From a virus (taxonomy: Duplodnaviria > Caudoviricetes): a stretch of 64,000 nucleotides of DNA. A program made the position numbers and the translations under genes. The first letter of the stretch is position 1. Each line of letters starts with the position of its first letter. The stretch lies in the IMG/VR virus record IMGVR_UViG_2858943916_000002, positions 26,186 through 90,185 of that record; one strand, 5' to 3'. The notes below the pieces were generated by a model that ran no database searches, had not been told where the DNA came from, and was given only the letters and a program-made list of their open reading frames with translations. This document shows positions 2,987 through 55,084 of the stretch, piece after piece.

Positions 2987-4024
2987 GTGCCTAACGCCGA
3001 GCAAAACCAACGAAATGAACAGGCCACATCAAGGCTAATTCGGATCCCAATAATCGTGGGGGGCTTGCTAATACTTGCCTACGGTATTTATTTTGGACTC
3101 ATCCGGAAGCAGGGAACAGGTGGCACCGATATCTGGGGTCAATTTGGCGATTTCTTGGGTGGACTGCTAAATCCGATCGTGGGTACCATCACCATCATCC
3201 TTCTCGTCCGCACTCTCATGGCCCAGTTAAATGCTGTCGACATGCAACGGGAAGAGTTAACACTGCAGCGGGATGAATTAAAGCTCCAACGTGCAGAAAC
3301 CGCGAAATCTACGGAGGCATTAGCGGCGCAAAACAATGCAATCAAGATGCAGAGTTTTGAGCAGACTTTTTTCGCATGGCACGACAGTTATCGAACCTTA
3401 GTGACTAACCTCGCGGGGACTAATGCGCAACTCAGCGGAGCCCAGAGACTTCTGGAGTTATATCAGCCTTTCAAGTCCTCATCGGTCTGCAAGGTCGCCA
3501 AAGGCGCACTAACGGAATACGACTCCATCCCGCCGGCCACCTATCCTCAAGCGATCGAGAGCTATCTGACAGATGGGAATAGATTAGTCGTCGAGCGTTT
3601 CGAGCGGGCAATTACTGCATACGAGACGATCTATAGAAACCACCACTCTGTTCTAGGCCCCATCTATCGAACGCTTTATCGACTGCTAGATTGGATAGAC
3701 AGATCATCGATTTCGGACGAAGAAAAATGGCACTATGTGGCTATAGCGCGATCCCAGTTATCCTGGGGCGAAATGCTATTTCTAGCATTTAACGGACTAA
3801 CTCCCAGAGGGCTAAACTTTGTTCCTCTCATGAACAAGTACGCATTACTCGACAATCTTGAAGACCACACGGAAGACCTGGTCCTGGTAATGCGCAAAGC
3901 CTTTCTGAAAAAGCCGCCAGAGCTTCTTAATCCGCAAATCAATGCGTGGAGGTACGAGGACGGCGCCTTTCACTCGTCCGTCGCCAAATCGAAGTTGGGG
4001 ATATTGACCGCAAGAGATATTTAA
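2987..4024 (+). CDS. Putative abortive-infection protein (putAbiC-type domain with N-terminal TM helices)
   Basis: WGQFGDFLGG TM segment, coiled coil, FEQTFF, YRTLYRLLDWID...ARSQLS...LMNKYALLDNL motifs; AT-rich codon usage. Confidence 0.75.
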   Translation: MPNAEQNQRNEQATSRLIRIPIIVGGLLILAYGIYFGLIRKQGTGGTDIWGQFGDFLGGLLNPIVGTITIILLVRTLMAQLNAVDMQREELTLQRDELKLQRAETAKSTEALAAQNNAIKMQSFEQTFFAWHDSYRTLVTNLAGTNAQLSGAQRLLELYQPFKSSSVCKVAKGALTEYDSIPPATYPQAIESYLTDGNRLVVERFERAITAYETIYRNHHSVLGPIYRTLYRLLDWIDRSSISDEEKWHYVAIARSQLSWGEMLFLAFNGLTPRGLNFVPLMNKYALLDNLEDHTEDLVLVMRKAFLKKPPELLNPQINAWRYEDGAFHSSVAKSKLGILTARDI

Positions 4025-5283: not shown

Positions 5284-5883
5284 TTAAACGGTCAAGTAAA
5301 CGCTGGAACCAGCCTCTGTCTGGATGTCAATCGGAAACTCCGCGCAGACAATGCATGCCTCCCGCATTTGAGTATCCAGACGATGCAAGGCGGCTCGACG
5401 CTTCCCTTCTACCAGCACCCGGTACGCGCCTCCGGCACGCTGTATGGCCGAATAAGGCAAGTCGAAGCGATCCGACAGATCACGCAGGCGCGGCCGGCCA
5501 CGCAGGATATTGGTGACCAGCAGGTCGGTCAGTTCACGCTCACAACTGTCGGCGAGCCCCTCCGGGTTAAGCCATTCCGAGATCCGACGTGCGCTGGCCG
5601 CCCCCTCTTCACCGGTTCCATACTGCGCCCGCAGGATGTGGAAGCCCACGCTATCGCCCAGCGTCCGCTCCATCAGCTTGACGATGAACACGGCCTGCGC
5701 GTGCCACTCATGCGGCGTCAGTCCTGATAGGGCCTTGCGCTCGTACTCGACGTCGAACCGCTCGCGCAGGGCCTCGCAGACCAACTGCGTCGGGTTCTTC
5801 GGCTCGATGGGCATGGCCAGCATCAAGTAGGCCACGGCGATCGCGTGCTCGGGGCACGAAAACGTTCCGGCTTCACGCGGCAT
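5284..5883 (-). CDS. Putative late-gene regulator (Q-position protein)
   Basis: Last gene of the early-right operon, strong SD AAGGAG, C-terminal HTH-like RLRDLSDRFDLPYSAIQR; function inferred from position. Confidence 0.55.
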   Translation of the reverse strand: MPREAGTFSCPEHAIAVAYLMLAMPIEPKNPTQLVCEALRERFDVEYERKALSGLTPHEWHAQAVFIVKLMERTLGDSVGFHILRAQYGTGEEGAASARRISEWLNPEGLADSCERELTDLLVTNILRGRPRLRDLSDRFDLPYSAIQRAGGAYRVLVEGKRRAALHRLDTQMREACIVCAEFPIDIQTEAGSSVYLTV

Positions 5884-6373
5884 TCTTTACTCCTTTCAAA
5901 TTCTCCAGCTCACAGCCTGGCTGTATCGGGCGGGTATAGACAGCCAAGCTCGGCACGCCCGGCTCGTCGTCCGAAAAATTTGTCGCGTACGGGTACCATT
6001 CCTGTTTCCACACGAGGAGGAATATATGAACAACCAAGTTCAGCAGCAGTTTGGCTTTCGGGTTGAAGATGCAGTAGAAACACCCTATGGTTGGACGGCC
6101 GCGTATTGGATCACTCGGCCTGGTGGGGCAGACCACGTTCGAGTAGATGTGCCTACGGTATTTCCAACATCCAAGGAGGCCGAAGAGAGTGCGCTCATGC
6201 GAGCCGAGGATCATCTTGCAGATGACTATGGCGGCATACGAAAGATCCGAGTTCCGCCAGCTCAACTCATGAGTTTTGGACCAAACGGTAAACGCTAAAT
6301 GGAGCGCTGTACGCCCCTTTGACTGGCCGTCCGTTTCAAGGTTTATCAGGAGCGCCTTGGCCATTGAGTTCAT
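5873..6373 (-). CDS. Antisense bridge ORF across cargo gene 6026..6298
   Basis: ATGA overlap with the upstream stop (6370-6373) and 11-nt overlap with the downstream start (5883); no recognisable protein family. Confidence 0.4.
   Translation of the reverse strand: MNSMAKALLINLETDGQSKGRTALHLAFTVWSKTHELSWRNSDLSYAAIVICKMILGSHERTLFGLLGCWKYRRHIYSNVVCPTRPSDPIRGRPTIGCFYCIFNPKAKLLLNLVVHIFLLVWKQEWYPYATNFSDDEPGVPSLAVYTRPIQPGCELENLKGVKNAA
6026..6298 (+). CDS. Hypothetical protein (cargo)
   Basis: Strong SD GAGGAGG; globular-looking 90 aa. Confidence 0.7.
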   Translation: MNNQVQQQFGFRVEDAVETPYGWTAAYWITRPGGADHVRVDVPTVFPTSKEAEESALMRAEDHLADDYGGIRKIRVPPAQLMSFGPNGKR

Positions 6374-6849
6374 GCCAGGTCACTCACCAAATCCACGGCC
6401 CTGAACCAACTGCCAAGGCCCGCACCGGCCGATGCTCCCGCCGTGTCTCCGCGCGGCTGCGCTGACGCGCATTCGTCGCCAAGCACCCGCAGCATCAACG
6501 CCCCCAATGCCTGCGCGGTCACATTCCCGCTGGCCGCTTCCGCGAAGTCCTTGCGGCTGTGCCGGCTCAGCCAGGGAATCACGCTGTCCGGCACAGGCTG
6601 GCCGGGCAGCGCCGCCTTCAGGCGCCCAGCCAGGATGAACAGGCTTCGACGGTTGTGCATGCGAGCGGTGATGCCTGCCTGCTCCGCGTAGGCCGTGCCG
6701 TGGTGCAGATGGCAGTACCAGTCGGACACGCCGGTCGTGGTGTCAGCGATAGACCCGGGCAGCATGCAGCCCCTGACGCAGCACATGCCGTAGCCCTGGA
6801 CCGGATGCTGGTGGCGGGTCACCGCCGCGGATGCCTCGGCGTAGCTCAT
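6370..6849 (-). CDS. Cys/His-rich phage protein (homolog of 50917..51393)
   Basis: MSYAEASAAV...GYGMC...GC.LPG...DWYC.LH shared with the prophage 2 copy. Confidence 0.75.
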   Translation of the reverse strand: MSYAEASAAVTRHQHPVQGYGMCCVRGCMLPGSIADTTTGVSDWYCHLHHGTAYAEQAGITARMHNRRSLFILAGRLKAALPGQPVPDSVIPWLSRHSRKDFAEAASGNVTAQALGALMLRVLGDECASAQPRGDTAGASAGAGLGSWFRAVDLVSDLA

Positions 6850-7835
6850 GCGGTTCGCTCCTGCTCATCACGCCGGCGACGCAGCTCGGCGAAGATCCGA
6901 TCGCGGTAGCTGGCGTAGGTCTCGCCGCCCCGAGCAAACATGCCCAGTTCACGCCCCACGCGGTCCGTCGCCGCATCGGACTTCCACCACTCGCCCCAGT
7001 CCTGGCCGGTCTCGGCACGAGGCCCCACCGCGTTCGGCACGACGGGAGCGCGAGCTGTTCGCACGCGGTTTCGCCAGGTCGCCAGCCAGTCGAGCTTGCA
7101 GCCCTTCGCTCCTGGCACGGCGGTCCAGTAGTCGCGGAATTCGTCGGCCAGTACGCGCACCTGCTCGGCGGACAGGTCGGGCCGCAGGTCGAGCGCCGCC
7201 TTGCCCCAGGACATCGGCAGAACCCAGTCTGCCGGCAGGCGAGATCCACGCTTCGTGGTGCTGACAGTGTTACGGCTTTTAGAGGTATTACCTACGAAGA
7301 TAGGTATTACCTCTTTCTTATGTTTTATTTCTGTAGGGAAAACTGGTACTGCTTCGGGTTTACCCAGGTGTCCCAAATTTGGTACTGCTTCGGGGTAAGC
7401 GGTACCAGTTTTGGGACTGCTTCCCTCAAAATCATCGGAAGCTATCCCAATTTCGGTACCGCTTAGCTGTCCCAAATCTGGTACTGCTTGGGCTTCGGAA
7501 GCTGTCCCGTTTTCGGTACCGCTTTGCTGATCCGAAGCTGTACCAGAATTGGTACCGCTTGCTGGTTCGCACAGCCGGAACACGACCACCGACTTAGTGG
7601 CCCCTGCCCGCTCGCCGCTATCGACCAGGAAACCTGCGTCGATCAGCCGGCGCAGATTGGCGAGCACCGTCTTGCGGTCTTGCCCAGTCTGCTGCGCGAT
7701 CAGGGTGGTGGATGCAAATGCGCTCCACGGCGCTTGCTTGCCGTGCGCATAATGCGCCAGTGCCACCAGAATGAACTTGGCTGGGGAATGGCAAACAGGC
7801 TGGGCCAATGCCCAAGCGACAGCTTGAGCACTCAT
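6846..7835 (-). CDS. Phage replication initiator (N-terminal HTH, O-like)
   Basis: AKFILVALAHYA...AQQTGQDRKTV HTH; internal iteron array; C-terminal DWLATWRN motif. Confidence 0.85.
   Translation of the reverse strand: MSAQAVAWALAQPVCHSPAKFILVALAHYAHGKQAPWSAFASTTLIAQQTGQDRKTVLANLRRLIDAGFLVDSGERAGATKSVVVFRLCEPASGTNSGTASDQQSGTENGTASEAQAVPDLGQLSGTEIGIASDDFEGSSPKTGTAYPEAVPNLGHLGKPEAVPVFPTEIKHKKEVIPIFVGNTSKSRNTVSTTKRGSRLPADWVLPMSWGKAALDLRPDLSAEQVRVLADEFRDYWTAVPGAKGCKLDWLATWRNRVRTARAPVVPNAVGPRAETGQDWGEWWKSDAATDRVGRELGMFARGGETYASYRDRIFAELRRRRDEQERTA
7270..7560. repeat. Replication origin: 7 iterons plus adjacent AT-rich stretch
   Basis: GG(T/G)AC(T/C)GCTT at 7345, 7381, 7413, 7455, 7480, 7515, 7551, most preceded by TGTCCCAAATTT-like 12-mers; AT-rich 7270-7335. 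Confidence 0.75.
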
Positions 7836-8155
7836 CGTCGTCCCCCAGGGGCCACAACCCTACCCTGCTCTACTACCGGTGCAACTCGTCCAATTCGTCC
7901 AGTGGCATTGCATTCACCACACATTAGCTTTTGAGGTTCACCAGAATACAACCATGCCAGGAATGGTTTGCGCACCAACTCATGGAATCGGTCGCGCGCC
8001 ATTTGATCCAGGTCGAGCTCGGCGCGCGACTCCACACCGGATACGCGACGAATGAACGCAGCGGCCTCATCGGCGCAGTGAACGCCAGCAAAAACCCAGA
8101 ACTTCGGATTTCGACTCAGCCGGACGGCCAGCCAGCAAATCGAATTGGCCTTCAT
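7832..8155 (-). CDS. Conserved phage hypothetical protein
   Basis: ATGA-coupled to the initiator; ESRAELD...FHELVRKPF motif. Confidence 0.75.
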   Translation of the reverse strand: MKANSICWLAVRLSRNPKFWVFAGVHCADEAAAFIRRVSGVESRAELDLDQMARDRFHELVRKPFLAWLYSGEPQKLMCGECNATGRIGRVAPVVEQGRVVAPGGRR

Positions 8156-11100
8156 TCGATATGCTCGAGTAAATCCCCTGCGGCAACACCCCGCTCCTCC
8201 GGCCCCTTACGGCATACACTGTTGGCTCTCACTCTGAACAGACGGGAGACGACCGACCATGAAGAAGTTAATAGTTGCGCTGAGGTATGAGCCATCCGTT
8301 GCGTTGCTCTTCGGGACGGCTGGCGTTGAATACCGCACAGATGGCGTTGTGGCTCCCGATGGGACGCAACTACCGGTGTGCCTATTACTCGTGGCATGCT
8401 CATCGGTTTCAGCCACGGACCATGGCCTTGTACGACTGGAAATTCGCCCAAGAGAGGGCGACCGAGCGCTTCCGTTCTCAGCGGTCTCAGTCCCAGCAGC
8501 ACTCCTTGCCTGGAGCATTGATTCAGGAAACGAGCGAGACTTCCCCGTGGGATTCCTACGTACCCAGGTCTAAGGCCGCGCATTGGCGTTGGGTGCAAGA
8601 GAACTTGATGCCGTAACAGATACCCGCTACTCTTGATAGTTACTTTTCTGTTACATCCAAGCGGAGTTGAAAGTGAATCAAGAGCAACACGAACTACTTG
8701 TCCAAGCTCATCAGCAAATGCTGAACCTTGCTCAAATAAACGAGGTGCAAATGAAGTTGAGCATGTCGATGCGAGAAGATCTGATGGCGGCGCAAATTGC
8801 CCTGCGCGCAGTGTGCGAAGTTCTTTCTCCCGAGGGAAAACGGCTTGCGGCTGAGCACATCCGGGAATTCGGGGAAGAGTTTCGGGATCGATTTGCAAAG
8901 GACCACCCAGACCGGGCGATTGACGGGTTCTCAATTGCAATAAATGCCTATATAGAAGGCTTGGGAGCCGCCCCCATCGCCGAGGGTGTGAAGTAGGACG
9001 CACGACAAAAGCGATTCGCCCATTCGCGCCTGCCAATCGCTGTTCAACTAGGAGATCGATTTGGATAACCCCGTCTATCGCTCCGCGATGGAAGGCCTGC
9101 AGGAAATGTATGGGCCTTTGTCTGGATGGCAAAGCAACGTAGGCGTTCGCACCAACACTTCGCCGAAGGGAAAAATCACCCTTTATCACGATCGAATCGC
9201 TTCCGGAAATAAGGCCGAGCTCGCGGTCGATCCTGAATCGATGGCCCGAGCGACCGGGCAAGGCGAAGACCAAGCCGAAGCTTTCATAAAACAACTGTCG
9301 CAGTTGACGGGGCGCGCCACCCTGACCCATGCAAGGTACAAATGGCCGCGGATCGGCTTGGCTGTGGACTCCGACGTGGAAGCAGTTTTGGAAGCTCTGC
9401 AAACTCTGTTCAATGAGGTGGCCTCGGACGCCCTCTCTTCGGATCCGTCGCCCAGCTACTGGTGGGTGAGCCACAACCAAATGCATCGCCGAGAGCTCAG
9501 CGGCGGCTACATCTGGTGTCCCCAGACCAAGAAAGGCGGCGGGGCGAGAGAAACCTGGACGAACGTATCTCGCGTGCGACGGGGAGACATCGTCTTTTCC
9601 TACGCAAAAACGAAGCTCCAAGCTGTTGGCGTTGCGCTTGGCGATGCACAGGAGGCAAGTGCTCCCAGCGAGGCGTATCACTCGTGGAACGATGCTGGAT
9701 GGCGCGTGACAATCCAGTGGGAATCCCTTGGATCCCCGTTGTCTCCCAAAGAGCATTGGGACGAAATCGGCGACCTTTTCCCTGCTGTCCATTCGCCACT
9801 GCGCGAGGATGGCGGCGGAAACATGACATACCTGGCGGCGTTGAGCGTGCCTCTGGGTTTGAAGCTGCTGGACCTGATCGGCATGACGGACGACGACGCC
9901 CTCGCGAACGTTGATCGGGAGATGGTCAAGGTGTCTGGCGTCGATAAGACCGAGGTTGAGCGGGTCTACCAAGCGCGTATAGGCCAAGGCACATATAGAA
10001 AGAACGTCATGTCCGTCGAACGCTACTGCCGCGTAACGGGTGTCAGCAATGTGGATCTGCTCATCGCGAGCCACATCAGGCCGTGGCGTCAAAGCTCGAA
10101 CCAACAACGCCTCGACGGCAACAATGGCCTGCTTCTCTCGCCTCACGTCGATAAGTTGTTCGACTCGGCCTGGATATCGTTTTCCGATCAGGGAGAGATC
10201 CTGGTTGCCAGCGGAGAGGTCAGAGAGGTGCTCATCGCCTGGGGCATTGACCCAGACATGAACGTAGGGCAATTCAATGAGGACCAAGAAAAATACTTGG
10301 CCTACCATCGAGACGTCCTTTTCTCGGAAAAGGCTAAGCAACCAGAAGAATGAGCGATCGGCCTCAATCGCAATCAGAAGAATCCACAAAGCACCTTGGA
10401 TTGAACCTGGCTGAGTTCGTACGTAATCCCACCAACCTTCACTAGACTCCCTGCAGGGAGCTTCCACATACGCAGCGATTAATCGGGAGATTTGGTCAGA
10501 ATGGCCCTCTACTTTTTGAGCTACGACTTGCGCAAATCCCGCAACTACCAACCGCTGTACGATGAACTGGCAAAGCTCGATGCCACTCGGGTCCTGGAAT
10601 CCCTTTGGGCGTTCAAACTCGCCGACACCAATTGCACATACGTTCGGGACTATTTCCGTCAATTTATCGATGCAGACGATGGGTTGATCGTGACCCAAGC
10701 TGTCGACTGGGCAACTTGGAACACGGATAAAGCCCCACCCAACACATAAGTCACGCCGTGCAGGAGGTAGCACCGCGCCCTCCTCCTGCCGGTCTAACGC
10801 CCGCGCCGCCTGTTCTAGATCAAGATGCGCATACTCAACTGGCGCCAATTTGACTTGGTCGGACACGTCGGGACGAATCCGCAACCTAGAATTGCCAACC
10901 AATTTGGCGGCCAGTTCCAGCCATATATGATCGGGATTCCCCAACCCCAACCATATGTGGAAGGAACTGACCATGGACCCGCAAGTAAGAGGACAATTGG
11001 CGACAATCACCTTCGCGCTTGGCAAACTCATCCGCTCGACCAGCCGTACCGCCGAACAGAGGCAAGACGAGGTGGAGCGGCTGCGGAGCTGGGCGGACCA

Positions 11101-11211
11101 CCAGCTCAAAGAGGCATATCGCGCGGGCGCAGATTCTGCCGGCCTCACGCCGGAGCAACAAGCCTTCCTGTCAGGAGTCCACGACACCGTAGACCAGTTG
11201 GCATGGCTCAT
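8152..11211 (-). CDS. 1019-codon antisense bridge ORF across five plus-strand cargo genes
   Basis: Stop-free in the ORF track; ATGA overlaps at both ends (11208-11211, 8152-8155); product has no recognisable motifs. Confidence 0.35.
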   Translation of the reverse strand: MSHANWSTVSWTPDRKACCSGVRPAESAPARYASLSWWSAQLRSRSTSSCLCSAVRLVERMSLPSAKVIVANCPLTCGSMVSSFHIWLGLGNPDHIWLELAAKLVGNSRLRIRPDVSDQVKLAPVEYAHLDLEQAARALDRQEEGAVLPPARRDLCVGWGFIRVPSCPVDSLGHDQPIVCIDKLTEIVPNVCAIGVGEFERPKGFQDPSGIELCQFIVQRLVVAGFAQVVAQKVEGHSDQISRLIAAYVEAPCRESSEGWWDYVRTQPGSIQGALWILLIAIEADRSFFWLLSLFREKDVSMVGQVFFLVLIELPYVHVWVNAPGDEHLSDLSAGNQDLSLIGKRYPGRVEQLIDVRREKQAIVAVEALLVRALTPRPDVARDEQIHIADTRYAAVAFDGHDVLSICALAYTRLVDPLNLGLIDARHLDHLPINVREGVVVRHADQVQQLQTQRHAQRRQVCHVSAAILAQWRMDSREKVADFVPMLFGRQRGSKGFPLDCHAPSSIVPRVIRLAGSTCLLCIAKRNANSLELRFCVGKDDVSPSHARYVRPGFSRPAAFLGLGTPDVAAAELSAMHLVVAHPPVAGRRIRREGVRGHLIEQSLQSFQNCFHVGVHSQADPRPFVPCMGQGGAPRQLRQLFYESFGLVFALPGRSGHRFRIDRELGLISGSDSIVIKGDFSLRRSVGANAYVALPSRQRPIHFLQAFHRGAIDGVIQIDLLVEQRLAGANGRIAFVVRPTSHPRRWGRLPSLLYRHLLQLRTRQSPGLGGPLQIDPETLPRIPGCAQPQAVFPREKELRTLRAGQFAPPSDLLASTCSTSFAPRLFEQGSAFADELGQVVRVALDSLSTPLGCNRKVTIKSSGYLLRHQVLLHPTPMRGLRPGYVGIPRGSLARFLNQCSRQGVLLGLRPLRTEALGRPLLGEFPVVQGHGPWLKPMSMPRVIGTPVVASHREPQRHLCGIQRQPSRRATQRMAHTSAQLLTSSWSVVSRLFRVRANSVCRKGPEERGVAAGDLLEHIE
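8259..8573 (+). CDS. Hypothetical protein (cargo)
   Basis: 104-aa ORF with GGGAG upstream. Confidence 0.6.
   Translation: MKKLIVALRYEPSVALLFGTAGVEYRTDGVVAPDGTQLPVCLLLVACSSVSATDHGLVRLEIRPREGDRALPFSAVSVPAALLAWSIDSGNERDFPVGFLRTQV
8667..8996 (+). CDS. Hypothetical helical/coiled-coil protein (cargo)
   Basis: GGAG SD (GTG 8673 is an alternative start); Q/E-rich helical pattern. Confidence 0.6.
   Translation: MKVNQEQHELLVQAHQQMLNLAQINEVQMKLSMSMREDLMAAQIALRAVCEVLSPEGKRLAAEHIREFGEEFRDRFAKDHPDRAIDGFSIAINAYIEGLGAAPIAEGVK
9061..10353 (+). CDS. EVE/PUA-like plus HNH endonuclease (modification-dependent restriction, VcaM4I-like) with an extra N-terminal domain
   Basis: YWWVS..Q....E..GGYIW.P and GDIVFS (EVE-like); R.GQG.YR, CRVTG, LIASHIRPW, RLDG.NGLLL.PH.D.LFD (HNH); TTG start with AGGAG. 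Confidence 0.82.
   Translation: MDNPVYRSAMEGLQEMYGPLSGWQSNVGVRTNTSPKGKITLYHDRIASGNKAELAVDPESMARATGQGEDQAEAFIKQLSQLTGRATLTHARYKWPRIGLAVDSDVEAVLEALQTLFNEVASDALSSDPSPSYWWVSHNQMHRRELSGGYIWCPQTKKGGGARETWTNVSRVRRGDIVFSYAKTKLQAVGVALGDAQEASAPSEAYHSWNDAGWRVTIQWESLGSPLSPKEHWDEIGDLFPAVHSPLREDGGGNMTYLAALSVPLGLKLLDLIGMTDDDALANVDREMVKVSGVDKTEVERVYQARIGQGTYRKNVMSVERYCRVTGVSNVDLLIASHIRPWRQSSNQQRLDGNNGLLLSPHVDKLFDSAWISFSDQGEILVASGEVREVLIAWGIDPDMNVGQFNEDQEKYLAYHRDVLFSEKAKQPEE
10501..10749 (+). CDS. Stand-alone Cas2/VapD-like small protein
   Basis: N-terminal strand YFLSYDL with an acidic D, Y..L..EL helix, ES.W, D.DD.L; 82 aa; no array nearby. Confidence 0.6.
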   Translation: MALYFLSYDLRKSRNYQPLYDELAKLDATRVLESLWAFKLADTNCTYVRDYFRQFIDADDGLIVTQAVDWATWNTDKAPPNT

Positions 11212-11293
11212 CGACTCCCCCGTTTACCCTCAGGGCCAAACGAGCGGTACATCCGCTCCGCGCAACGACGATCCCAGTCCTCCTGATCTCTGA
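10973..11293 (+). CDS. Hypothetical helical protein (cargo)
   Basis: SD GGAAGGA before ATG 10973 (MDPQVRG...). Confidence 0.65.
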   Translation: MDPQVRGQLATITFALGKLIRSTSRTAEQRQDEVERLRSWADHQLKEAYRAGADSAGLTPEQQAFLSGVHDTVDQLAWLIDSPVYPQGQTSGTSAPRNDDPSPPDL

Positions 11294-11363
11294 CGTCGCG
11301 GGTGTATCGGCGCAGCGCGGGCGTAATTAACCAGAGCAAGGCGCGGGCATACAGTTCACGCAT
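11208..11363 (-). CDS. 51-aa phage protein MRELYARALLWLITPALRR...
   Basis: Translated manually; 8-nt overlap with the upstream stop and ATGA overlap with the 1019-codon ORF. Confidence 0.6.
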   Translation of the reverse strand: MRELYARALLWLITPALRRYTRDVRDQEDWDRRCAERMYRSFGPEGKRGSR

Positions 11364-11712
11364 GGCAGCCCCCACTCGCGTCGGTATCTGGCGACTGCTC
11401 TTTGAACTTGCGCTCCCAGCCGATCACGAGGTAGCCAAACGGTCGGCTCCACTCCGTCACACCGGCTGGCGGGACCGCGCCAGGAATGATCTCGGCCAAC
11501 TCATATGTGAACCGCCCTGCGACATCGCCAACGGGTCGAAAGGTGGCATAGCCAATGTGGTTGCCGGCGCCATCACGTAGGCGCATGCCCAAGAGCGTCG
11601 GAGCTTCAGGGCGCATTTTTGGCCCCTCAAGCACCAGTCGAACGCCACCGCGGCCCGCAGGCTCGAGCCAGGCGTTGATATCGAGGTCAGCGTAGGTTCG
11701 GAATTCACGCAT
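11356..11712 (-). CDS. Hypothetical phage protein (MREFRTY...)
   Basis: Strong SD AAGGAG before ATG 11712. Confidence 0.65.
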   Translation of the reverse strand: MREFRTYADLDINAWLEPAGRGGVRLVLEGPKMRPEAPTLLGMRLRDGAGNHIGYATFRPVGDVAGRFTYELAEIIPGAVPPAGVTEWSRPFGYLVIGWERKFKEQSPDTDASGGCHA

Positions 11713-11968
11713 TGGAGGCTCCTTGCTGCGAATGGGCGCCCTGCCCCTTCCCCTTAAACTGGCTGCTCTCACACAAACCATCCTTGGGAAAGGAGCTGGG
11801 CATGGAAAAAACGGCGCGGCAGCAGTTCGACGACCTGCTGAAGGAATCGCACTTCTTCAACGATTCGATCAACACGGCAAAGCGAGCCGCTGGATACGCG
11901 GCCGGGCAAATCCTCGGCGCCCTCATCGAAGGGGATGTCACCATGTACGAAAAGCTCAAGCGACTCAT
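11705..11968 (-). CDS. Antisense bridge ORF B across cargo 11802..12143
   Basis: ATGA start overlap at 11965-11968 and ATGCGTGA end overlap at 11705-11712. Confidence 0.4.
   Translation of the reverse strand: MSRLSFSYMVTSPSMRAPRICPAAYPAARFAVLIESLKKCDSFSRSSNCCRAVFSMPSSFPKDGLCESSQFKGKGQGAHSQQGASNA
11733..11806 (+). promoter_or_regulatory. 74-bp cargo promoter/RBS element shared with prophage 2 (54521..54594)
   Basis: 67/74 identical by manual alignment; TAAACT -10-like hexamer, AAAGG(A/G)G SD and ATG. Confidence 0.65.
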
Positions 11969-12143
11969 GGCCGAAGACTTCCAGCGAGACTCGGACCAAG
12001 GCCCGAGCCTGGACAGTGCAGCTCGGCTGGTGCTCCATGGAATTCAGCAGGGACTCGATTCGGTTGCGCGTCCAAGCGCGCGGCTGCAGCAGACGCGGCA
12101 GCGTTCGGCCGCGCGGTCGCCGGGGAACCCAGCCGCCGACTGA
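11802..12143 (+). CDS. Hypothetical protein (cargo)
   Basis: Starts at the ATG of the shared element (MEKTARQQF...). Confidence 0.65.
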   Translation: MEKTARQQFDDLLKESHFFNDSINTAKRAAGYAAGQILGALIEGDVTMYEKLKRLMAEDFQRDSDQGPSLDSAARLVLHGIQQGLDSVARPSARLQQTRQRSAARSPGNPAAD

Positions 12144-12243
12144 TCGCTACCATCACCAGCGCACGTTGCATGGCGCGCCTGATCTGCGGCGGCCCGAAAG
12201 CCTTGGCGCCCTTCTCGCGCCCATATCCAGCCCGATTACGCAT
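11965..12243 (-). CDS. Post-cro ORF A / antisense bridge
   Basis: ATGCGTAA overlap with the cro stop; stop overlaps the ORF B start. Confidence 0.45.
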   Translation of the reverse strand: MRNRAGYGREKGAKAFGPPQIRRAMQRALVMVAISRRLGSPATARPNAAASAAAARLDAQPNRVPAEFHGAPAELHCPGSGLGPSLAGSLRP

Positions 12244-12523
12244 GGCTTGGCTCCTGCGGCGCGGCCGCGGCCAGCTCCGGCCAGAGACGCCCGTAGTCAT
12301 TGGGCCGCAAGTCCTGGCGGCGGCATTCGCCATCGGTGATCAATTCAATGTCCGCAGCGATAAGGCCGGCGAGCTTATAGCCGTAAGCGACCTGGCGGAG
12401 GTATCCCACCGACGTGCCACGTTGGCGACAGCGTGCCTGCGCTTCCAGCTTGGGGGTCTTCCTCAACCACTGGAGCAAAGGCTCCACTGGCACTCTTGTT
12501 CGGGATAAGGGTTGTTGACTCAT
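12236..12523 (-). CDS. cro: Cro-like transcriptional regulator (YdaS-type)
   Basis: GTSVGYLRQVAYG HTH, ...DLRP.D...WPEL tail, divergent from the repressor. Confidence 0.85.
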   Translation of the reverse strand: MSQQPLSRTRVPVEPLLQWLRKTPKLEAQARCRQRGTSVGYLRQVAYGYKLAGLIAADIELITDGECRRQDLRPNDYGRLWPELAAAAPQEPSHA

Positions 12524-12532
12524 CCTAAAACA

Positions 12533-12594
12533 TTACCGCAGGGTAATTATTTTGACAAGAAAAATTTACCCCTGGGTTGTTTACCTGCGGGTAG
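12533..12594. promoter_or_regulatory. OR operators of prophage 1 (three TTACC-N4-GGTAA sites)
   Basis: ttaccgcagggtaa 12533, ttacccctgggttg 12566, ttacctgcgggtag 12581; TTGACA at 12552. Confidence 0.8.
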
Positions 12595-12616
12595 CTGTCA
12601 GGCAACACTTCACACC

Positions 12617-12994
12617 ATGGAAATTGACGATATCTACGCAGTCCGCCTTCAGCGCTTTCGGACCCTGATGGACGACCGGTTCGGCGGCAAACAAGCCGCG
12701 ATCGCTACTGCGGTTGGCAAGCCAGCCAACTATGTTTCCCGCATCATCAGCGGGAATAAAAAGCTGGGCGAAGAAATCGTCCGGGAATTCGAGACATCCC
12801 TGGACCTTCCCGCGTATTGGTTTGACGGGCTAACCGATACAACGGCATGGCCCTTCCCTAGCGTCAGCCGAGCGGCGTATGAGTCGCTTACGCCCGAACA
12901 ACGCCGTGGCATCGAACAATGGGTTGCTAGGCAAGTGGAAGCATTCGGCGACACGCACACGCCGGGCGCGGGTAACTCCAAAAAGAGCGCCTAG
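12617..12994 (+). CDS. cI: CI-like repressor, HTH only (125 aa, no S24 peptidase domain)
   Basis: RLQRFRTL...KQAAIATAVGKPANYVSRII...REFE..L.LP.YWFD; divergent from cro. Confidence 0.8.
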   Translation: MEIDDIYAVRLQRFRTLMDDRFGGKQAAIATAVGKPANYVSRIISGNKKLGEEIVREFETSLDLPAYWFDGLTDTTAWPFPSVSRAAYESLTPEQRRGIEQWVARQVEAFGDTHTPGAGNSKKSA

Positions 12995-16996: not shown

Positions 16997-17785
16997 ATGG
17001 CCAAGAAATCCAAAGACGTGTACGGCGCGGACGGCCAGAGCAATCTGCTCAACTTCGACCCCGCCAAGCTGACTCTCGTCACAGACGAATCCAGCCCCCT
17101 ATATGACAAGCGCGTGCATCTGCCCGTGAACGAGGCGCTGGCGCGGAACATCGACTATCAGGGAGTGCTGGAGCCCGTGGCGGTTTCCAAGAACCCCGAG
17201 ACGGGCGACACCGAGGTCGTGTTCGGCCGGCAGCGCGTGAAGGCCGCCGTGCTCGCCAACCAGTGGCGTCGAGAACGCGGTGTGCCGGAACGACTGATTC
17301 CCGGCATCGTCTACACGGGCAAGCGCGAGAACGCCCTGGACGCGATCGTCAGCGAGAACGAAGCCCGCACCGCTGATACGCCTCTGGGCCGCGCCGAGAA
17401 GATGCGCCAACACCTTGCCCTGGGCAAAGGTGAAGACCAGATTGCGGTCATCTACAACTGCACGATCGCCACGGTCCGCGACACGCTGGCGCTGCTGGAT
17501 AGCCCCAAGGCCGTGCAGAACGCCGTCGAGGCAGGTCTGATCACCCTGACCCATGCCAAGGCACTGGTGAAGCTCAAACCTGATGAACAGCGCGCCAAGG
17601 TGGCCGAGTTGGTCGCGGCCGGCAAGAACGCCACGCCCCACCAGCGAAGCCGCAAGCAGGCCGCAGTCATGGGCGAGCGCCCCCGCGTAAGGTCCCGCAA
17701 GCAGATCCAGGCCGCTTTGGAAACCGCGCAAGGCGACTATGCCGCAGCCCTGCGCTGGGTGCTGGGAGAGGAAGACGGCGCATGA
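16997..17785 (+). CDS. ParB-like nuclease/HTH protein
   Basis: GVLEPV.V, VVFGRQRVKA, SENEAR, HTH and LTHAKAL motifs. Confidence 0.8.
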   Translation: MAKKSKDVYGADGQSNLLNFDPAKLTLVTDESSPLYDKRVHLPVNEALARNIDYQGVLEPVAVSKNPETGDTEVVFGRQRVKAAVLANQWRRERGVPERLIPGIVYTGKRENALDAIVSENEARTADTPLGRAEKMRQHLALGKGEDQIAVIYNCTIATVRDTLALLDSPKAVQNAVEAGLITLTHAKALVKLKPDEQRAKVAELVAAGKNATPHQRSRKQAAVMGERPRVRSRKQIQAALETAQGDYAAALRWVLGEEDGA

Positions 17786-17853
17786 ATGCTTCCAAGGCGA
17801 CGAGCCCGAACAGCGAAATCCAATCCCGACAGGGCAATGGGAGCGAAGAATGA
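17782..17853 (+). CDS. 23-aa linker ORF
   Basis: ATGA overlap with the ParB-like stop and with the bridge start. Confidence 0.35.
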   Translation: MNASKATSPNSEIQSRQGNGSEE

Positions 17854-18515
17854 TAGCTAGAAAGCTAGTCGAGATTTCCGCTCAACACTCGGGCCATCCA
17901 GTCCTCGCACTGCCGTTTCAGCGCCTCCACATCGGCAATGCCGGACAGCAACACATCAGAGGAGGCGCCGTTGACAATCATCATCGCCAACCCCGACTGT
18001 GCCTGACGCGCAGCCCTAACCGCAGCCGATCGTTCGGCCTTCTGCGCCATACCTTCGAAATTCGCGCACATGGATGCGAGGAGCGACACGATCGATCCCC
18101 CAAATACTCCATCGGCTCTGTCTTGCAAGGCGATCAAGCGCGTGTGCAAGAGCGAAAACTCCGAACTCGAAGGCCTGTCTCCGGCCTCCCATTGCTTGAG
18201 AAGCGCCTGCAACTGACCGCAAATCTGGTAGCACGTGTGAGCCACGGCCCAGTTTCGCTTCACAACAGCAGCCTTGTCGTCCTTTCGTCGCTCGAAGTTC
18301 TGCCAAAGAGGAACGGCTACGGCAAACATCGCCGCCCCCACAGTGCCGAACGCCGTCATCAAATCCCACCACTTAGCTTCGGCCGACATGTCAACTTTCG
18401 TGGCGAGAGCGAACCCCAAAGCCAAGCCAATGAGGGTAAGCACTGCGCCGGCAATCAAATAAAGCGCCTTCATGCTCGTCTCCATATTTGGCCGCAATCG
18501 TATCCCAGCGGCTAA
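17850..18515 (+). CDS. Antisense bridge ORF across cargo 17865..18497
   Basis: ATGA start; its TAA overlaps the AAGGAG SD of the next ORF. Confidence 0.4.
   Translation: MIARKLVEISAQHSGHPVLALPFQRLHIGNAGQQHIRGGAVDNHHRQPRLCLTRSPNRSRSFGLLRHTFEIRAHGCEERHDRSPKYSIGSVLQGDQARVQERKLRTRRPVSGLPLLEKRLQLTANLVARVSHGPVSLHNSSLVVLSSLEVLPKRNGYGKHRRPHSAERRHQIPPLSFGRHVNFRGESEPQSQANEGKHCAGNQIKRLHARLHIWPQSYPSG
17865..18497 (-). CDS. Membrane-anchored hypothetical protein (cargo)
   Basis: Two N-terminal TM segments (WWDLMTAFGTVGAA...W) then a helical domain. Confidence 0.7.
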   Translation of the reverse strand: MRPNMETSMKALYLIAGAVLTLIGLALGFALATKVDMSAEAKWWDLMTAFGTVGAAMFAVAVPLWQNFERRKDDKAAVVKRNWAVAHTCYQICGQLQALLKQWEAGDRPSSSEFSLLHTRLIALQDRADGVFGGSIVSLLASMCANFEGMAQKAERSAAVRAARQAQSGLAMMIVNGASSDVLLSGIADVEALKRQCEDWMARVLSGNLD

Positions 18516-48120: not shown

Positions 48121-48570
48121 TTAGACGGTAGTCATCACGGATTGAGGGGGATTATGCACCCGGGAGACGAACTTGGCAACATAAGACTCGAATTCGTAGA
48201 CAGCCCGGACCAGAATGTCGTCGAACTCCCGTACACGCACCCCCTGCATACGGCAGATTATGGCCGGCGGCTGTCGCAGAACGTAGTAGGAGCGCAACAG
48301 CGCCGTTTCGCGTGGCAGACCTCGGTATCCCGCCGCCGTCCGCCAGCAGGCCTCGATCAACTCTGCATCCGCCTCGTCTTTCTCCGGGCGCAGATGCTCG
48401 CTGTCTTCTCCACGCGGCAGCTTGCCGGCCTTGCGCGCCAGTTCCTGGCATACCTGATACGTGGGCGATACCGAGAATGACGGCCGATCGCGCATCACCG
48501 CGCCCCAATTTTCAAGCCGTTCGTGAAAGTCGGCCGGCAGCCGGTCCAGCAGCAGTTTGGGAATGGTCAT
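48121..48570 (-). CDS. Putative antiterminator Q-like protein
   Basis: RLENWG...R N-terminus, L...Y...P....C; last early-right gene. Confidence 0.65.
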   Translation of the reverse strand: MTIPKLLLDRLPADFHERLENWGAVMRDRPSFSVSPTYQVCQELARKAGKLPRGEDSEHLRPEKDEADAELIEACWRTAAGYRGLPRETALLRSYYVLRQPPAIICRMQGVRVREFDDILVRAVYEFESYVAKFVSRVHNPPQSVMTTV

Positions 48571-48773
48571 GGCGCGGGGCGCTCCTCGTACTTCGAACAA
48601 CGTTGGCCGATCTCTTCGCCCAGGGCGCAGCGCAGGACGCGCCGGCCGCCGAACGGGTTGGTGATCAGGCGGATTTCCTTGCAGCCCGCGCAGGTGCGCG
48701 CCGGCGGCGGTTCTTGGCGTCGCTCCAGCAGCTTGGCCGGGTCGCCGCGCTCGGATTGTGTGGCCCAGGTCAT
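48567..48773 (-). CDS. Small Cys-rich phage protein
   Basis: GDP...LER.Q....C.GC.......C....G.RC. Confidence 0.7.
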   Translation of the reverse strand: MTWATQSERGDPAKLLERRQEPPPARTCAGCKEIRLITNPFGGRRVLRCALGEEIGQRCSKYEERPAP

Positions 48774-49045
48774 GCGGCACGCTCCACGTCTCGCGCGGGC
48801 ATGGCAATTTGCGGGTCTACGTCCGCCCAGCGGTATTCGACGGAATTGCGCGCGTGCTGGATGACGCGGACGTAGCCGCCCTCACGCAGGGTTTCCAGCA
48901 GTCGCAGAATGGCCTGGCGCGCGGCGTTGCGCTCGCGGCGCGATAGGTCGCGGCCGGCGGCGGCCGCCTGCACCAGCTGCGCCATGCGGTGGGCGCGCGG
49001 CGGCTGGGATTGGAGAAGGCCCATCACCTCGGCGGCGTGTTTCAT
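48770..49045 (-). CDS. Small winged-helix-like phage protein
   Basis: MK.A.EV..L......RM..LV, ..LRLLETL...G.V. Confidence 0.7.
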   Translation of the reverse strand: MKHAAEVMGLLQSQPPRAHRMAQLVQAAAAGRDLSRRERNAARQAILRLLETLREGGYVRVIQHARNSVEYRWADVDPQIAMPARDVERAA

Positions 49046-49410
49046 GCGGAGATCTCCTGGACGGTGCCCGGGATGCGGCTGACCGCGGGAATAAGGGGGA
49101 TTTGCGACGCGGCCGCGCGCTCGGCGGCGGCGCGCAGCCAGCGGTCAGGCCGGTACTCGGGCGCGTGGAGTGCGTCGTGCGTCCGGCTCGGGGTCGGCAC
49201 GCCTTCGGCCATGCTGGCGAAGCGCTGCATGTAGCCCACGGACTCACCGCGCCCAGGCCTGGCCCAGCCGGTGATGCGGTGGATGGCGGCGACCACGTCG
49301 AAGTCGCGCACAGTCTTCTTCGGGAACTTGTAGCCCTGCCGGCGCAGCTTGCGCGCGCAGGCGTTGCGCGCTTTTCGGGCCTGGACGATCTGCTCGTTGG
49401 TTCGGCTCAT
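49042..49410 (-). CDS. Phage hypothetical protein
   Basis: Coupled ORF in the early-right operon. Confidence 0.65.
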   Translation of the reverse strand: MSRTNEQIVQARKARNACARKLRRQGYKFPKKTVRDFDVVAAIHRITGWARPGRGESVGYMQRFASMAEGVPTPSRTHDALHAPEYRPDRWLRAAAERAAASQIPLIPAVSRIPGTVQEISA

Positions 49411-50327
49411 GCTTTGCGCTCCTGCGCCACGGCGCCAAAGAGGTCGGTCTGCGGCTGCTCGACGGCCAGCGGCGTGACGACCGCCACCAGCCGCGCGCCG
49501 AATTCGTCCGGCTCGGCCCGGCGGGCGCTGATCTCGCGCACCCAGGCGTCATCCTGGAAAACCACGTCCTTCAGGCTGTCCAGCACCACCTTCTGGGCGT
49601 TGTCCAGGTCCAGGCACTGCACGGTGTCGTCCCAGGCCGCGCCTTCCTTGCGCATGCGCTTCTGCCAGTCCTGCGGCCGGTTCGGGTACAGCGTGAACTC
49701 GACCCGCACCCGGCCGGCGATCGGCTTGCGCACGCCCGCCACCAGCGCCAGCCTCTGCACCTGGGCCTTGTAGGCCTTGGCCTCGGGCGTGACGTAGGTG
49801 CTGGTGAAGGCCGGCTTGCCGCGCGGCGTGACCGTCCGGCTGGCCCAGTAGCGATTCGCGCTGATCGGGTACGGGAGGGTCAGCAGCACCGAGGGCGCGG
49901 CGCCGGGGGCCGAACTTGACGAATTGCGCAAGTTGGCAAATTCCGGCCGGGCCCAGGGATCAGCGGCCTCGATGTTAATTTTTGCCGGCTCGGCTGTAGG
50001 CGCTCCCGCGCGCGTAAAACTGGCCGGCGTAGCTCCTGCACCACCTGCGGTTTTGTAGCGCTCCTGCACCACCTGCGCACCGGCGGCAGGCCTGCACACC
50101 AGGCACCCGTCGCAGCCGCGGGCCTGGCATTGCAAGGCATTTCGGCCGCCACCACCAGGTGCGCGGATCAAGGTTTCATGCGGCGTGGCGGGGCTGTTTG
50201 CTTGCAAAACCCGCGCCGTTGCGGGCTTCTCGCTTTGAAAGTCCGGCGAATACGTGATTCGGCCCGTGCCCGCCAGCGTGCCGGCCATCGGGTCGTAGGC
50301 GTCCGTGAGGTTCTGTGAAGAGGTCAT
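49407..50327 (-). CDS. rusA: RusA Holliday junction resolvase with a long N-terminal extension
   Basis: LPYP.S.NRYW, DLDN..K...D.L...V..DD..V; ATG 50327. Confidence 0.8.
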   Translation of the reverse strand: MTSSQNLTDAYDPMAGTLAGTGRITYSPDFQSEKPATARVLQANSPATPHETLIRAPGGGGRNALQCQARGCDGCLVCRPAAGAQVVQERYKTAGGAGATPASFTRAGAPTAEPAKINIEAADPWARPEFANLRNSSSSAPGAAPSVLLTLPYPISANRYWASRTVTPRGKPAFTSTYVTPEAKAYKAQVQRLALVAGVRKPIAGRVRVEFTLYPNRPQDWQKRMRKEGAAWDDTVQCLDLDNAQKVVLDSLKDVVFQDDAWVREISARRAEPDEFGARLVAVVTPLAVEQPQTDLFGAVAQERKA

Positions 50328-53953: not shown

Positions 53954-54265
53954 CTATGCCGCCCCGCACGTGCCCTGGCTCAGCCTGGCGCGGCAGCAGT
54001 TGGCGCCGATGGCATTGCCACGGGCCAGATAGTCCATGTACCACTGCTCGACGATCGACAGGCCGAACACCTCCAGGATGGCGTCCAACTGCTCCAGCTT
54101 GATGCCGGCGTTGTTGTTCAGTACCTGGGTGATCGACGATTCATCTTTCCAGCCAGCCGCCTGCATGACGTCGGCGCGCTTGGCCTTGGACATGGTGGTC
54201 AAGGCCTTGCGGATCAGGGTTTCGCCCTGAGGCTGTGATGCGGAGGGAATCTGAGGGGCGTTCAT
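53954..54265 (-). CDS. cII: CII-like transcriptional activator
   Basis: V..A.GW.D.S.I..V..N..GIKLE.L...L..FGL..V; position after cro. Confidence 0.7.
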   Translation of the reverse strand: MNAPQIPSASQPQGETLIRKALTTMSKAKRADVMQAAGWKDESSITQVLNNNAGIKLEQLDAILEVFGLSIVEQWYMDYLARGNAIGANCCRARLSQGTCGAA

Positions 54266-54915
54266 GAGGCTTCAACGCTGTTCAAGTGAAAGGGAATGCC
54301 GCTGAAAGCGCGGCTCGGCACACTGGCGGCATGAAAAATCTGACCGAAACCGAAAAGCTGCTCATCACCGCCCAGGACATGGCCCGGCGCACCTTCGTCG
54401 ACCCCAGCGAGGCCGCGGTGCTGGCCATCTTTGAAGAGCTGCGCGCCGAGCGCGACCGCATGGCATGGGCCACCGACGACCGCGCCGGCGCGACGGTGCA
54501 CTGAGCCATGTCCATCGAATTGGGCGCCCTGCCCCTTCCCCTTAAACTGGCGGCTCTCACACTCACCGTTCTTGGGAAAGGGGATGGGCATGGACTGGAA
54601 GTTCGCCTTAGGCACGCTGTTCGCCGCGCTGGGCGGCCTGTTCGCGCTGATGAATCGGCATCCGCGCGTGTACAAGGCAATCAGCAGTGTGCTGACCGAC
54701 ATCATTGGGTTCTTGGGCACTGCGTCGATGGGCCTGTACCTGGGCATACAACTCGCGATGGATCTCATCCGAGACTCAGCCGCAAAGCAGATGCCGGATA
54801 TCACCGCGGCGTCGGTCGGGCAGTTGATGGGGAGCGCCGAAAGAGCCCTCACCGTCTTCGGCTGGGCGACAGCACTCATCTTTGCGTTGTTCGTCGGGCA
54901 TCTGGTGTTCGGCAT
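54262..54915 (-). CDS. Antisense bridge ORF across cargo 54590..54964 and 54331..54504
   Basis: AGGAGG SD overlapping the upstream TAG, ATG 54915; ATGA overlap with cII. Confidence 0.45.
   Translation of the reverse strand: MPNTRCPTNNAKMSAVAQPKTVRALSALPINCPTDAAVISGICFAAESRMRSIASCMPRYRPIDAVPKNPMMSVSTLLIALYTRGCRFISANRPPSAANSVPKANFQSMPIPFPKNGECESRQFKGKGQGAQFDGHGSVHRRAGAVVGGPCHAVALGAQLFKDGQHRGLAGVDEGAPGHVLGGDEQLFGFGQIFHAASVPSRAFSGIPFHLNSVEAS
54331..54504 (+). CDS. 57-aa helical protein antisense to the PR operon
   Basis: MKNLTETEKLL..AQD.ARR.F.DPSEAAV...F.EL.AERDR.AW. Confidence 0.6.
   Translation: MKNLTETEKLLITAQDMARRTFVDPSEAAVLAIFEELRAERDRMAWATDDRAGATVH
54521..54594 (+). promoter_or_regulatory. 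74-bp cargo promoter/RBS element shared with prophage 1
   Basis: 67/74 identical to 11733..11806. Confidence 0.65.
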
Positions 54916-54964
54916 CCTGGCCCTCCTAGCGGTCAACGAAGAGGACAAGAAGGCCAAAGGCTGA
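54590..54964 (+). CDS. Three-TM membrane protein (cargo)
   Basis: Hydrophobic segments; starts at the ATG of the shared element. Confidence 0.7.
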   Translation: MDWKFALGTLFAALGGLFALMNRHPRVYKAISSVLTDIIGFLGTASMGLYLGIQLAMDLIRDSAAKQMPDITAASVGQLMGSAERALTVFGWATALIFALFVGHLVFGILALLAVNEEDKKAKG

Positions 54965-55084
54965 CGCCAGGCCGACATGGAAATGCCAGCGCGACCACCA
55001 CGTGGCGCGCGCGGTCGCCCAGCGGGCATACCGGACAAGCCATGCGTGACGAGCAGCGCGCCGAGCAAGCAATTCGACGAGCAT
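54926..55084 (-). CDS. 52-aa post-cro ORF (Arg/Trp-rich, hydrophobic end)
   Basis: TGATG overlap with the cro stop; MLVELLARRAARHAWL... Confidence 0.5.
   Translation of the reverse strand: MLVELLARRAARHAWLVRYARWATARATWWSRWHFHVGLASAFGLLVLFVDR

Follow-up and report, generated by a model that had tools for sequence, protein, structure and literature searches.

The window analysed here is a 64,000-nucleotide stretch of a virus of the Caudoviricetes (positions 26,186 to 90,185 of IMG/VR record IMGVR_UViG_2858943916_000002, a parent record of 90 kb). Its content of guanine plus cytosine (GC) is 63%, it is most closely related to prophages carried by Achromobacter xylosoxidans and A. ruhlandii, and the integrase, RecT, terminase and related genes that it carries mark it as a double-stranded DNA prophage, not an RNA virus. 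Our study concerns its early-right operon, read on the minus strand from a cro-like gene at position 12523 down to 5284, the end of a gene that occupies the position of the late regulator Q. Accessory genes lie backward in this operon, and we call them cargo; the operon-strand open reading frames (ORFs) that run opposite to them we call bridges. The largest bridge extends without a stop over five cargo genes, and our comparisons of sequences suggest that selection very probably keeps the operon strand open across this block, while the protein that the bridge would encode does not appear to be conserved.

An earlier note on this DNA had described the operon as an unbroken and uniform relay of coupled ORFs, and the anatomy of that description held. 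All eleven minus-strand ORFs between 12523 and 5284 are present where it had placed them, and each begins with ATG and has its only stop at the end. At ten of ten junctions from cro to the Q-position gene the ATG overlaps the previous stop, giving a gap-free series (Table 1). The overlap is ATGA at six junctions (11968, 11211, 8155, 7835, 6849 and 6373), ATGCGTAA between cro and 11965-12243, and ATGCGTGA at 11712 and 11363. The junction at 5873/5883 does measure the 11 nt that had been reported, but these are an overlap (ATGCCGCGTGA) and not the gap that the wording could imply. A strict rule for chains (every start an ATG; every stop ending at -1 to +10 relative to the following ATG) picks out only two of this length in the whole window: that described here, with 11 ORFs and 7240 nt, and a second in prophage 2 (53951-48121). 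What did not survive is the uniformity of the relay, as the blocks around cargo F and cargo G, two of the three bridged blocks, individually fit chance.

Six of the chain ORFs are taken as ordinary overlapping genes of a phage operon, three by PHROG match and the others by conservation or coding score. The remaining five (11965-12243, 11705-11968, 11208-11363, 8152-11211 and 5873-6373) are antisense to backward cargo, look like antisense translation and seem to encode no conserved protein. Across the window and its relatives, a clear motif resembling a Shine-Dalgarno (SD) sequence precedes about half of 14 bridge starts, and most bridges end in ATGA or in a short overlap with the next ATG. Decisions on strand were made without the self-trained gene caller, a crude one that chose the 166-aa bridge instead of cargo G and failed to call the genes of 107 and 118 aa. 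A megablast search of the 7.2-kb region against the phage collection gave no match.

Table 1. Chain ORFs, cargo genes and related features (window positions unless a locus is named; pN/pS, ratio of non-synonymous to synonymous substitutions per site; GC3, GC content at third codon positions; PL, early-left operon)
Feature	Coordinates	Strand	Remarks
cro-like first early-right gene, 95 aa	12236..12523	-	phrog_35 'transcriptional repressor' at 8e-8; divergent from HTH_3 repressor-like gene 12512-12994
Bridge ORF F1, 92 aa, antisense to 3' half of cargo F	11965..12243	-	ATGCGTAA overlap with cro stop, AGGAG upstream; coding score -0.15 per codon
Bridge ORF F2, 87 aa, antisense to 5' half of cargo F	11705..11968	-	ATGA hand-over at 11965-11968 inside cargo F; junk-like translation
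Operon gene (probable), 118 aa	11356..11712	-	AAGGAG before ATG; DNA conserved in L003, L004 and L005; coding score +0.09; no PHROG or Pfam match
Linker ORF, 51 aa, over 3' end of cargo E, hands over to large bridge	11208..11363	-	ATGCGTGA at start, ATGA at end; no family match
Large bridge ORF, 1019 codons, over cargo A-E	8152..11211	-	GGGGGAG before ATG; ATGA at both ends; coding score -0.17
Operon gene, real, 107 aa	7832..8155	-	phrog_19763 at 4e-12; ATGA-coupled on both sides
Replication initiator, 329 aa	6846..7835	-	HTH_36; phrog_11896, phrog_6643, phrog_1032
Operon gene (probable), 159 aa	6370..6849	-	pN/pS 0.07 against L004; AGGAG before ATG
Bridge ORF G, 166 aa, codon-aligned with cargo G	5873..6373	-	N- and C-termini match 51-aa ORFs of L001 and L005
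Q-position gene, 199 aa, last chain ORF	5284..5883	-	AAAGGAG before ATG; pN/pS 0.18; Q function putative; no Pfam or PHROG family match
Cargo F, backward gene behind cro, 113 aa	11802..12143	+	Coding score +0.18 per codon; no PHROG or Pfam family match
Cargo E, 112 aa, not codon-aligned	10955..11293	+	Coding score +0.09; promoter-like site at 10904-10931
Cargo D, 85 aa, Cas2-like fold family phrog_1090, codon-aligned	10492..10749	+	phrog_1090 at 1.7e-15
Cargo C, HNH_2 nuclease, 430 aa, codon-aligned	9061..10353	+	PF13391 at 3e-11; pN/pS 0.086
Cargo B, 109 aa, not codon-aligned	8667..8996	+	Coding score +0.10
Cargo A (gene call uncertain), 109 aa	8287..8616	+	GC3 pattern favours frame; coding score negative in both candidate frames; no Pfam or PHROG match
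Cargo G, 90 aa	6026..6298	+	pN/pS 0.38, against 1.04 in the antisense frame, from 9 substitutions only
AbiC-like gene, backward behind Q-position gene, unbridged	2987..4024	+	putAbiC at 1.3e-15; GC 49%
PL-operon bridge ORF, 258 codons, over backward membrane-protein gene 17865-18497	17739..18515	+	Codon-aligned, 0 of 37 candidate codons
Prophage 2 bridge ORF, 268 codons, TTG start, over backward membrane-protein gene 54590-54964	54262..55068	-	ATGA with next gene 53954-54265
Membrane-protein family members	L001 9930-10592; L003 6909-7541; L004 7155-7727; L005 6410-7093 and 7160-7810; window 17865-18476 (PL operon)	opposite early operon	

The large bridge is the longest ORF of the 90-kb contig, exceeding every real gene, and it sits in the GC-poorest part of the region (~56% GC). 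Between 8152 and 11211 its frame holds no internal stop, against 24-42 in each of the five other frames. It is not confined to one codon-aligned sense gene, but crosses five. Where a gene on the opposite strand is codon-aligned with such a frame, antisense stops can come only from its TTA, CTA and TCA codons. Cargo A (if real), C and D are aligned with the bridge in this way and have none of the three, despite A-ending codons making up 17-25% of their four-fold families; among the candidate leucine and serine codons the counts are 0 of 65 in cargo C, with 7.7 expected, and 0 of 13 in cargo D. Cargo B and E are both out of register (the bridge stands at 1 modulo 3, the start of cargo B at 0 and cargo E at 2), and in cargo B the isoleucine of both Ile-Asn pairs is encoded by the rare ATA; ATC or ATT, expected in 94% of cases, would give an antisense stop. 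These two genes and ~590 nt outside the cargo genes lack codon alignment, and yet remain open.

The length of the large bridge exceeds a composition-based expectation by many orders of magnitude, whereas bridges F and G meet what is expected of shadow ORFs. Synonymous resampling of cargo A-E with the codons of the contig's own control genes predicted 10.7-14.5 stops where there are none (product P(0) 1e-8 to 4e-7), and dinucleotide shuffles of the five stretches between or beside cargo genes contributed a further factor of P = 1.8e-4. The earlier note would have counted it against its idea if codon-preserving shuffles often yielded such coupled frames; for the large bridge, not one of 300 resampled versions gave a bridging chain, lenient junction rules included. 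Synonymous permutation of cargo B and E broke it in 2000 of 2000 trials, a procedure that is uninformative for codon-aligned genes (cargo G stayed open in 2000 of 2000).

It might be thought that the chain only combines chance shadow ORFs of a genome with 63% GC with the tight junctions that are normal where phage operon genes overlap. Shadow ORFs of 300-500 codons are indeed common on the contig, 9 of 28 control genes of at least 300 codons lack all three codons, and bridges F, G and that of prophage 2 were recreated in 11-100% of randomisations. Yet the large block is the GC-poorest and retains its share of other A-ending codons, 11-15 stops would be expected against none, and its unaligned portions are open as well. 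Moreover, the pattern is repeated over unrelated cargo in eight other loci, with ORF ends on the neighbours' stop and start, and unbridged homologues indicate that the gene family is not inherently free of TTA, CTA and TCA. We therefore regard chance as a very improbable account of the chain.

Five relatives share the backbone of the window, with initiators 96-99% identical and flanks 92-96% identical, and differ in their cargo. They comprise L001, from A. xylosoxidans NH44784-1996, and L002-L005, from IMG/VR. The earlier note had proposed asking whether different cargo in the same slot keeps an open antisense frame, and in all five it does: directly upstream of the initiator, backward genes are covered on the operon strand by a long ORF of junk-like sequence. 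From L001 to L005, these bridges are 929, 883, 389, 279 and 491 codons long, and at the end of each a short ORF (43-107 aa) leads over to the initiator, to which it is coupled by ATGA. The cargo belongs mostly to one membrane-protein family, whose members are 15-22% identical and are all codon-aligned with their own bridge; in L003-L005 PHROG left the cargo strand undecided for most genes, and we judged it by eye from translations and a shared motif. In L002, the allele of cargo D has diverged to 72% nucleotide identity, while the flanking HNH gene stands at ~97%, and is still free of stops on the operon strand. The membrane-protein family has ~200 aa and the motif A.W.QA..S..AI; it is the usual backward cargo upstream of the initiator, and it also occurs in the PL operon before xis/int. 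These proteins may act in superinfection exclusion.

Bridges also occur on a different backbone. Three further prophages (L028, L029 and L030) carry a homologue of the HNH gene between a YdaT-like gene and the downstream genes, and in each the cargo is bridged from the upstream stop to the next start. The bridge of L029 has 780 codons and ATGA at both ends, that of L030 has 584 codons, and that of L028, whose HNH gene is 98% identical, has 719; in the bridged prophages of other backbones apart from L028, HNH identity is 66-68%. Over the bridge spans of all eight relatives, the bridge frame has no stop, against 6-35 in the two other frames of the same strand. A search of genome contigs with the HNH protein returned one close relative only. 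Taking together 13 codon-aligned cargo genes of nine loci (2955 codons), the three avoided codons occupy 0 of 417 candidate leucine and serine sites, against ~52 expected under a model calibrated on control genes, a figure to be read as consistency across loci and not as an unbiased P value, since the genes of the bridged set were chosen with their open frames already known. In the four-fold families of these genes, other A-ending codons reach 13-25%; six of the genes are mutually only 15-22% identical. Neighbouring cargo genes share a codon phase in 6 of 9 adjacent pairs, where one third would be expected (binomial ~0.04), which is suggestive of a tendency to keep one common phase.

If bridges were protein genes, their own frame should bear the mark of constraint. 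Such a role has been proposed for antisense overlapping genes of phage Fc02 (gene 10 and olg1/olg2), where an overlap in the early operon gave exclusion phenotypes from both strands (PMC9936078). Bridges do have SD-like motifs and ATG starts, and gene callers annotate them: the bridge ORF of L001 (P0001; L001 8001-10748) stands in GenBank as the 915-aa hypothetical protein NH44784_037811 of A. xylosoxidans, overlapping the called HNH gene. But pN/pS in the bridge frame is 1.4-1.5. Compared with L001, the window gives 1.44 in this frame and 0.086 in that of HNH, with 60 of the 80 substitutions at HNH third positions and none making a stop; compared with L002, the values are 1.52 for the whole bridge and 0.16 for HNH. 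The 1019-aa product has no match in Pfam or PHROG, and among 5.8 billion proteins it found two relatives only, which match just the part opposite HNH (45-53% of the query). One relative, P0002, is itself a 643-aa antisense ORF. Relatives share only this HNH-opposite part, and the rest of each bridge tracks the local cargo. The composition of the product is that of antisense translation: cysteine reaches 2.6%, against 0.7% in the real proteins of the contig, cysteine, histidine and arginine are enriched, and lysine and threonine are depleted. These data support the view that the bridge frame is not a normal protein gene and that its protein sequence would not be conserved. We thus find it improbable that the bridges, or parts of them, are functional antisense genes. 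The earlier claim that selection holds junk bridge ORFs open accordingly stands for the large block, and does not extend to F and G, which are not beyond chance.

Backward cargo is not always bridged, and the contrasts seen here are in keeping with the escort model discussed below. The AbiC-like gene, placed between the Q-position gene and the late genes, has 22 TTA, CTA or TCA codons and faces 14-22 stops in every minus frame; its position fits a switch to Q-type antitermination or a separate late promoter. HNH homologues that lie backward in the PL operons of two Pseudomonas prophages have 21 and 11 of the avoided codons and are unbridged, and there are 6 in a chromosomal copy. Freedom from stops on the reverse strand is therefore no inherent property of the gene family, and openness is, as far as these comparisons reach, tied to a particular position in particular phages. 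The two Pseudomonas homologues (L033 5001-6161 and L034 5001-6194) each stand beside a second accessory gene, encoding DUF4145 or DUF6602, backward in the operon that runs from RecT/YqaJ to the integrase.

These contrasts also bear on the idea that the open frame serves the cargo, either because translated antisense RNA shuts off defence genes during lytic growth or because openness hitch-hikes as a property of a mobile module. The antisense frame of the HNH gene is open in three different backbones, and the ends of cargo and bridge coincide. However, transcriptional interference requires no open frame, the frame runs on through unrelated flanks that differ between phages, and HNH homologues outside these prophages have no open frame. 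We see this as a far-fetched explanation.

The remaining bridges are smaller. In L001 and L005, the place of bridge ORF G is taken by a linker ORF of 51 aa; bridge ORF G is this linker enlarged by a net 345 nt, inserted in frame and containing cargo G. The same slot of L003 holds a bridge of 398 codons. The earlier note had seen the same design in the PL operon and in prophage 2, and in both cases it was partly right. In the PL operon, between a ParB-like gene and those for excisionase and integrase, a single 258-codon ORF does cover a backward gene, but its overlaps measure 44-47 nt and are not ATGA. Prophage 2 has one bridged cargo directly behind cro, but most of its chain seems, from inspection of the translations by eye, to be made up of real genes on the same strand. 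Apart from the bridged cargo, that chain (48121-53951, minus strand, 11 ORFs) looks like an ordinary, tightly packed operon of replication-region genes, one of which (~50327-50920) resembles a Vsr/DUF559-type endonuclease.

Some details of individual genes can be added. The HNH_2 domain of cargo C spans only residues 323-374 of 430. Most homologues of the protein, at 300-330 aa, align with its last two thirds, so that the first ~130 residues form an extra domain. Cargo D, directly behind the HNH gene, matches Cas2 at 2e-4, below the Pfam cut-off. At the head of the operon, the longest ORF of the repressor-like gene (12512-12994, plus strand) opens at a TTG and overlaps the ATG of cro by 12 nt; the true start is probably an ATG near 12617, leaving ~93 nt for divergent promoters.

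Why would an early operon be kept open in this way? Untranslated antisense RNA is a classic substrate of the termination factor Rho and of RNases. We think that escort of the early RNA by ribosomes through the backward cargo, including protection against Rho, is the best explanation of our data, and a reasonably likely one. Ribosomes starting at cro would terminate and re-initiate along the whole chain, covering the early RNA through the cargo; this continuous translation would avert polarity on the replication and Q-position genes, and it would also bring ribosomes to downstream genes whose starts overlap the previous stop. Selection would act via the synonymous choices of the cargo, by excluding TTA, CTA and TCA where genes are aligned, by special codon pairs where they are not, and by a shared codon phase. 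Translation of the bridge frames, a single early transcript, and Rho or decay as the pressure are what we infer from these patterns. Rho is known to suppress antisense transcription within genes, ribosomes trailing the polymerase shield Rho-utilization (rut) sites, and loss of translation leads to polarity (reviewed in PMC12360218). In agreement with a role of Rho, a ratio of C to G above 1.3 is found in 18-28% of 80-nt windows of bridge RNA, against 0-7% in real genes, and the locus shows no excess of intrinsic terminators. In lambdoid phages, N guards the early operons and Q the late operon (PMC12360218). Searches for an N-like gene or for put or nut RNA in PHROGs (ORFs at the head of PL included), Pfam and Rfam over the 64 kb gave no match, a negative that carries little weight because N proteins are poorly conserved.

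Translation across the cargo could be selected under a pressure other than Rho, such as the hand-over of ribosomes to downstream genes whose starts depend on termination and re-initiation, or the protection of the early RNA from RNase E or from RNase III acting on duplexes with abundant cargo mRNA. Every downstream start overlaps the previous stop, and some have no good SD sequence, like the 107-aa gene at 8155. The cargo block is found in RNA libraries, which carry no strand information, so that sense transcripts may exist, and in narnaviruses the loading of ribosomes has itself been proposed to protect RNA (PMC8316113). Several genes nevertheless have a strong SD sequence of their own (AAGGAG at 11712, AGGAG at 6849, AAAGGAG at 5883), indicating that hand-over is not strictly needed; the present data separate none of these pressures from Rho, as all would leave the same footprint. 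We consider such pressures a less likely, though serious, alternative to escort against Rho.

Several observations weigh against the escort model or limit its reach. The strict chain over cargo F was kept in 11% of codon resamplings and in 33% of synonymous permutations, cargo G is codon-aligned with only four candidate codons, and the cargo of prophage 2 was open in 27% of permutations, so that all three are within what chance alone provides. Because these small bridges are within chance, the statistical weight of the relay rests on one block together with the comparative data. Some relatives and the PL operon have looser junctions, with gaps or overlaps of 10-47 nt and TTG starts. Pseudomonas prophages carry like cargo backward without bridges; the device is thus not obligatory, and the Pseudomonas phages must have some other way of getting past such cargo. 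In the window, internal promoters or an antiterminator that escaped recognition might be at work. Finally, the cargo block was found in two metatranscriptomes and parts of the backbone in two transcriptomes of related strains, but the RNA contigs of these four runs are unstranded and possibly derive from DNA, and hence are silent on translation or on a single transcript. Contigs of the two metatranscriptomes (from a bioreactor and a food fermentation) are deeper than the flanks over window positions 8243-10430, a pattern that would fit expression of cargo in lysogens and could equally come from DNA.

Our results may reflect a more general design rule, to which we give an even chance. In certain temperate phages, represented here by Achromobacter prophages with at least two different backbones, backward cargo would be allowed in essential early operons only if the operon strand can be translated, with a junk frame docked on the flanking stop and start, and with ribosome escort against Rho in place of N-type antitermination. 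Such a rule would explain how defence genes expressed in lysogeny can lie backward in operons that are read through at induction, which is puzzling given how efficiently Rho does away with antisense RNA that is not translated. Antitermination of the N and Q types would gain an alternative based on translation, and it would be shown that kilobases of sequence can be selected purely for freedom from stops. If it is true, bridge frames would reveal operon structure and Rho dependence from sequence alone, and phage-borne defence genes would be under a measurable codon constraint, with a bearing on analyses of their codon usage and on design rules for prophage engineering. Gene calling is affected too, as bridges are annotated as large hypothetical proteins, can displace real genes and enter protein databases as spurious entries.

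The earlier note had not known of such frames being described as a system, and a full-text search of the literature indeed found no account of bridge frames in phages, while the codon rule itself has been published for narnaviruses (PMC6884476). The principles at work, ambigrammatic coding and the avoidance of polarity by translation, are thus known, and are met here in a setting that we have not found published. The closest phage case is Fc02 of Pseudomonas aeruginosa (PMC9936078), where exclusion genes of lysogeny type also lie backward in an early lytic operon under an operon-strand ORF. There, however, this ORF counts as a functional gene that has an exclusion phenotype of its own, the overlap covers a few hundred nucleotides, and neither stop avoidance nor escort is claimed. 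The antitermination systems of lambda (N and Q) and HK022 (put) likewise carry early transcription through inserted or terminating sequence to the replication and late-regulator genes, but they act on RNA polymerase and need no open frames. Translation that averts Rho polarity is known from the upstream ORFs of leader peptides such as tnaC and Bordetella cruR (PMC12360218), where ribosomes mask rut sites and translation of a functionless peptide decides on transcription downstream. These upstream ORFs are short, regulatory and placed at operon leaders, whereas the bridges would be constitutive, are up to 3 kb long, lie within the operon and overprint genes of the opposite strand.

Two further comparisons concern the frames themselves. 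Shadow ORFs of GC-rich genomes are, like the bridges, long codon-aligned antisense frames favoured by the rarity of TTA, CTA and TCA. But they end at random and rarely leave one gene, whereas the large bridge crosses five genes and their spacers in a GC-poor island and is docked on the neighbours' stop and start. The nearest parallel is found in the ambigrammatic narnaviruses (Culex narnavirus 1 and relatives). In these viruses a stop-free frame of kilobase length, mostly codon-aligned, runs along the reverse of a real gene and is kept open through avoidance of the same three codons (PMC6884476). It appears that this frame has to be translated (PMC8316113), and the proposed function is, as we suggest here, the act of translation and not its product. 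The two differ in several ways. The frame described here belongs to a double-stranded DNA prophage and lies within a polycistronic operon, it spans several genes and spacers, two of these genes are not codon-aligned with it, and it is coupled by stop and start to real genes on both sides; Rho polarity, moreover, is absent from the eukaryotic hosts of narnaviruses. If our interpretation is right, the bridge would be a DNA-phage counterpart of the narnavirus ambigrams, working like an ambigram without being a member of the group.

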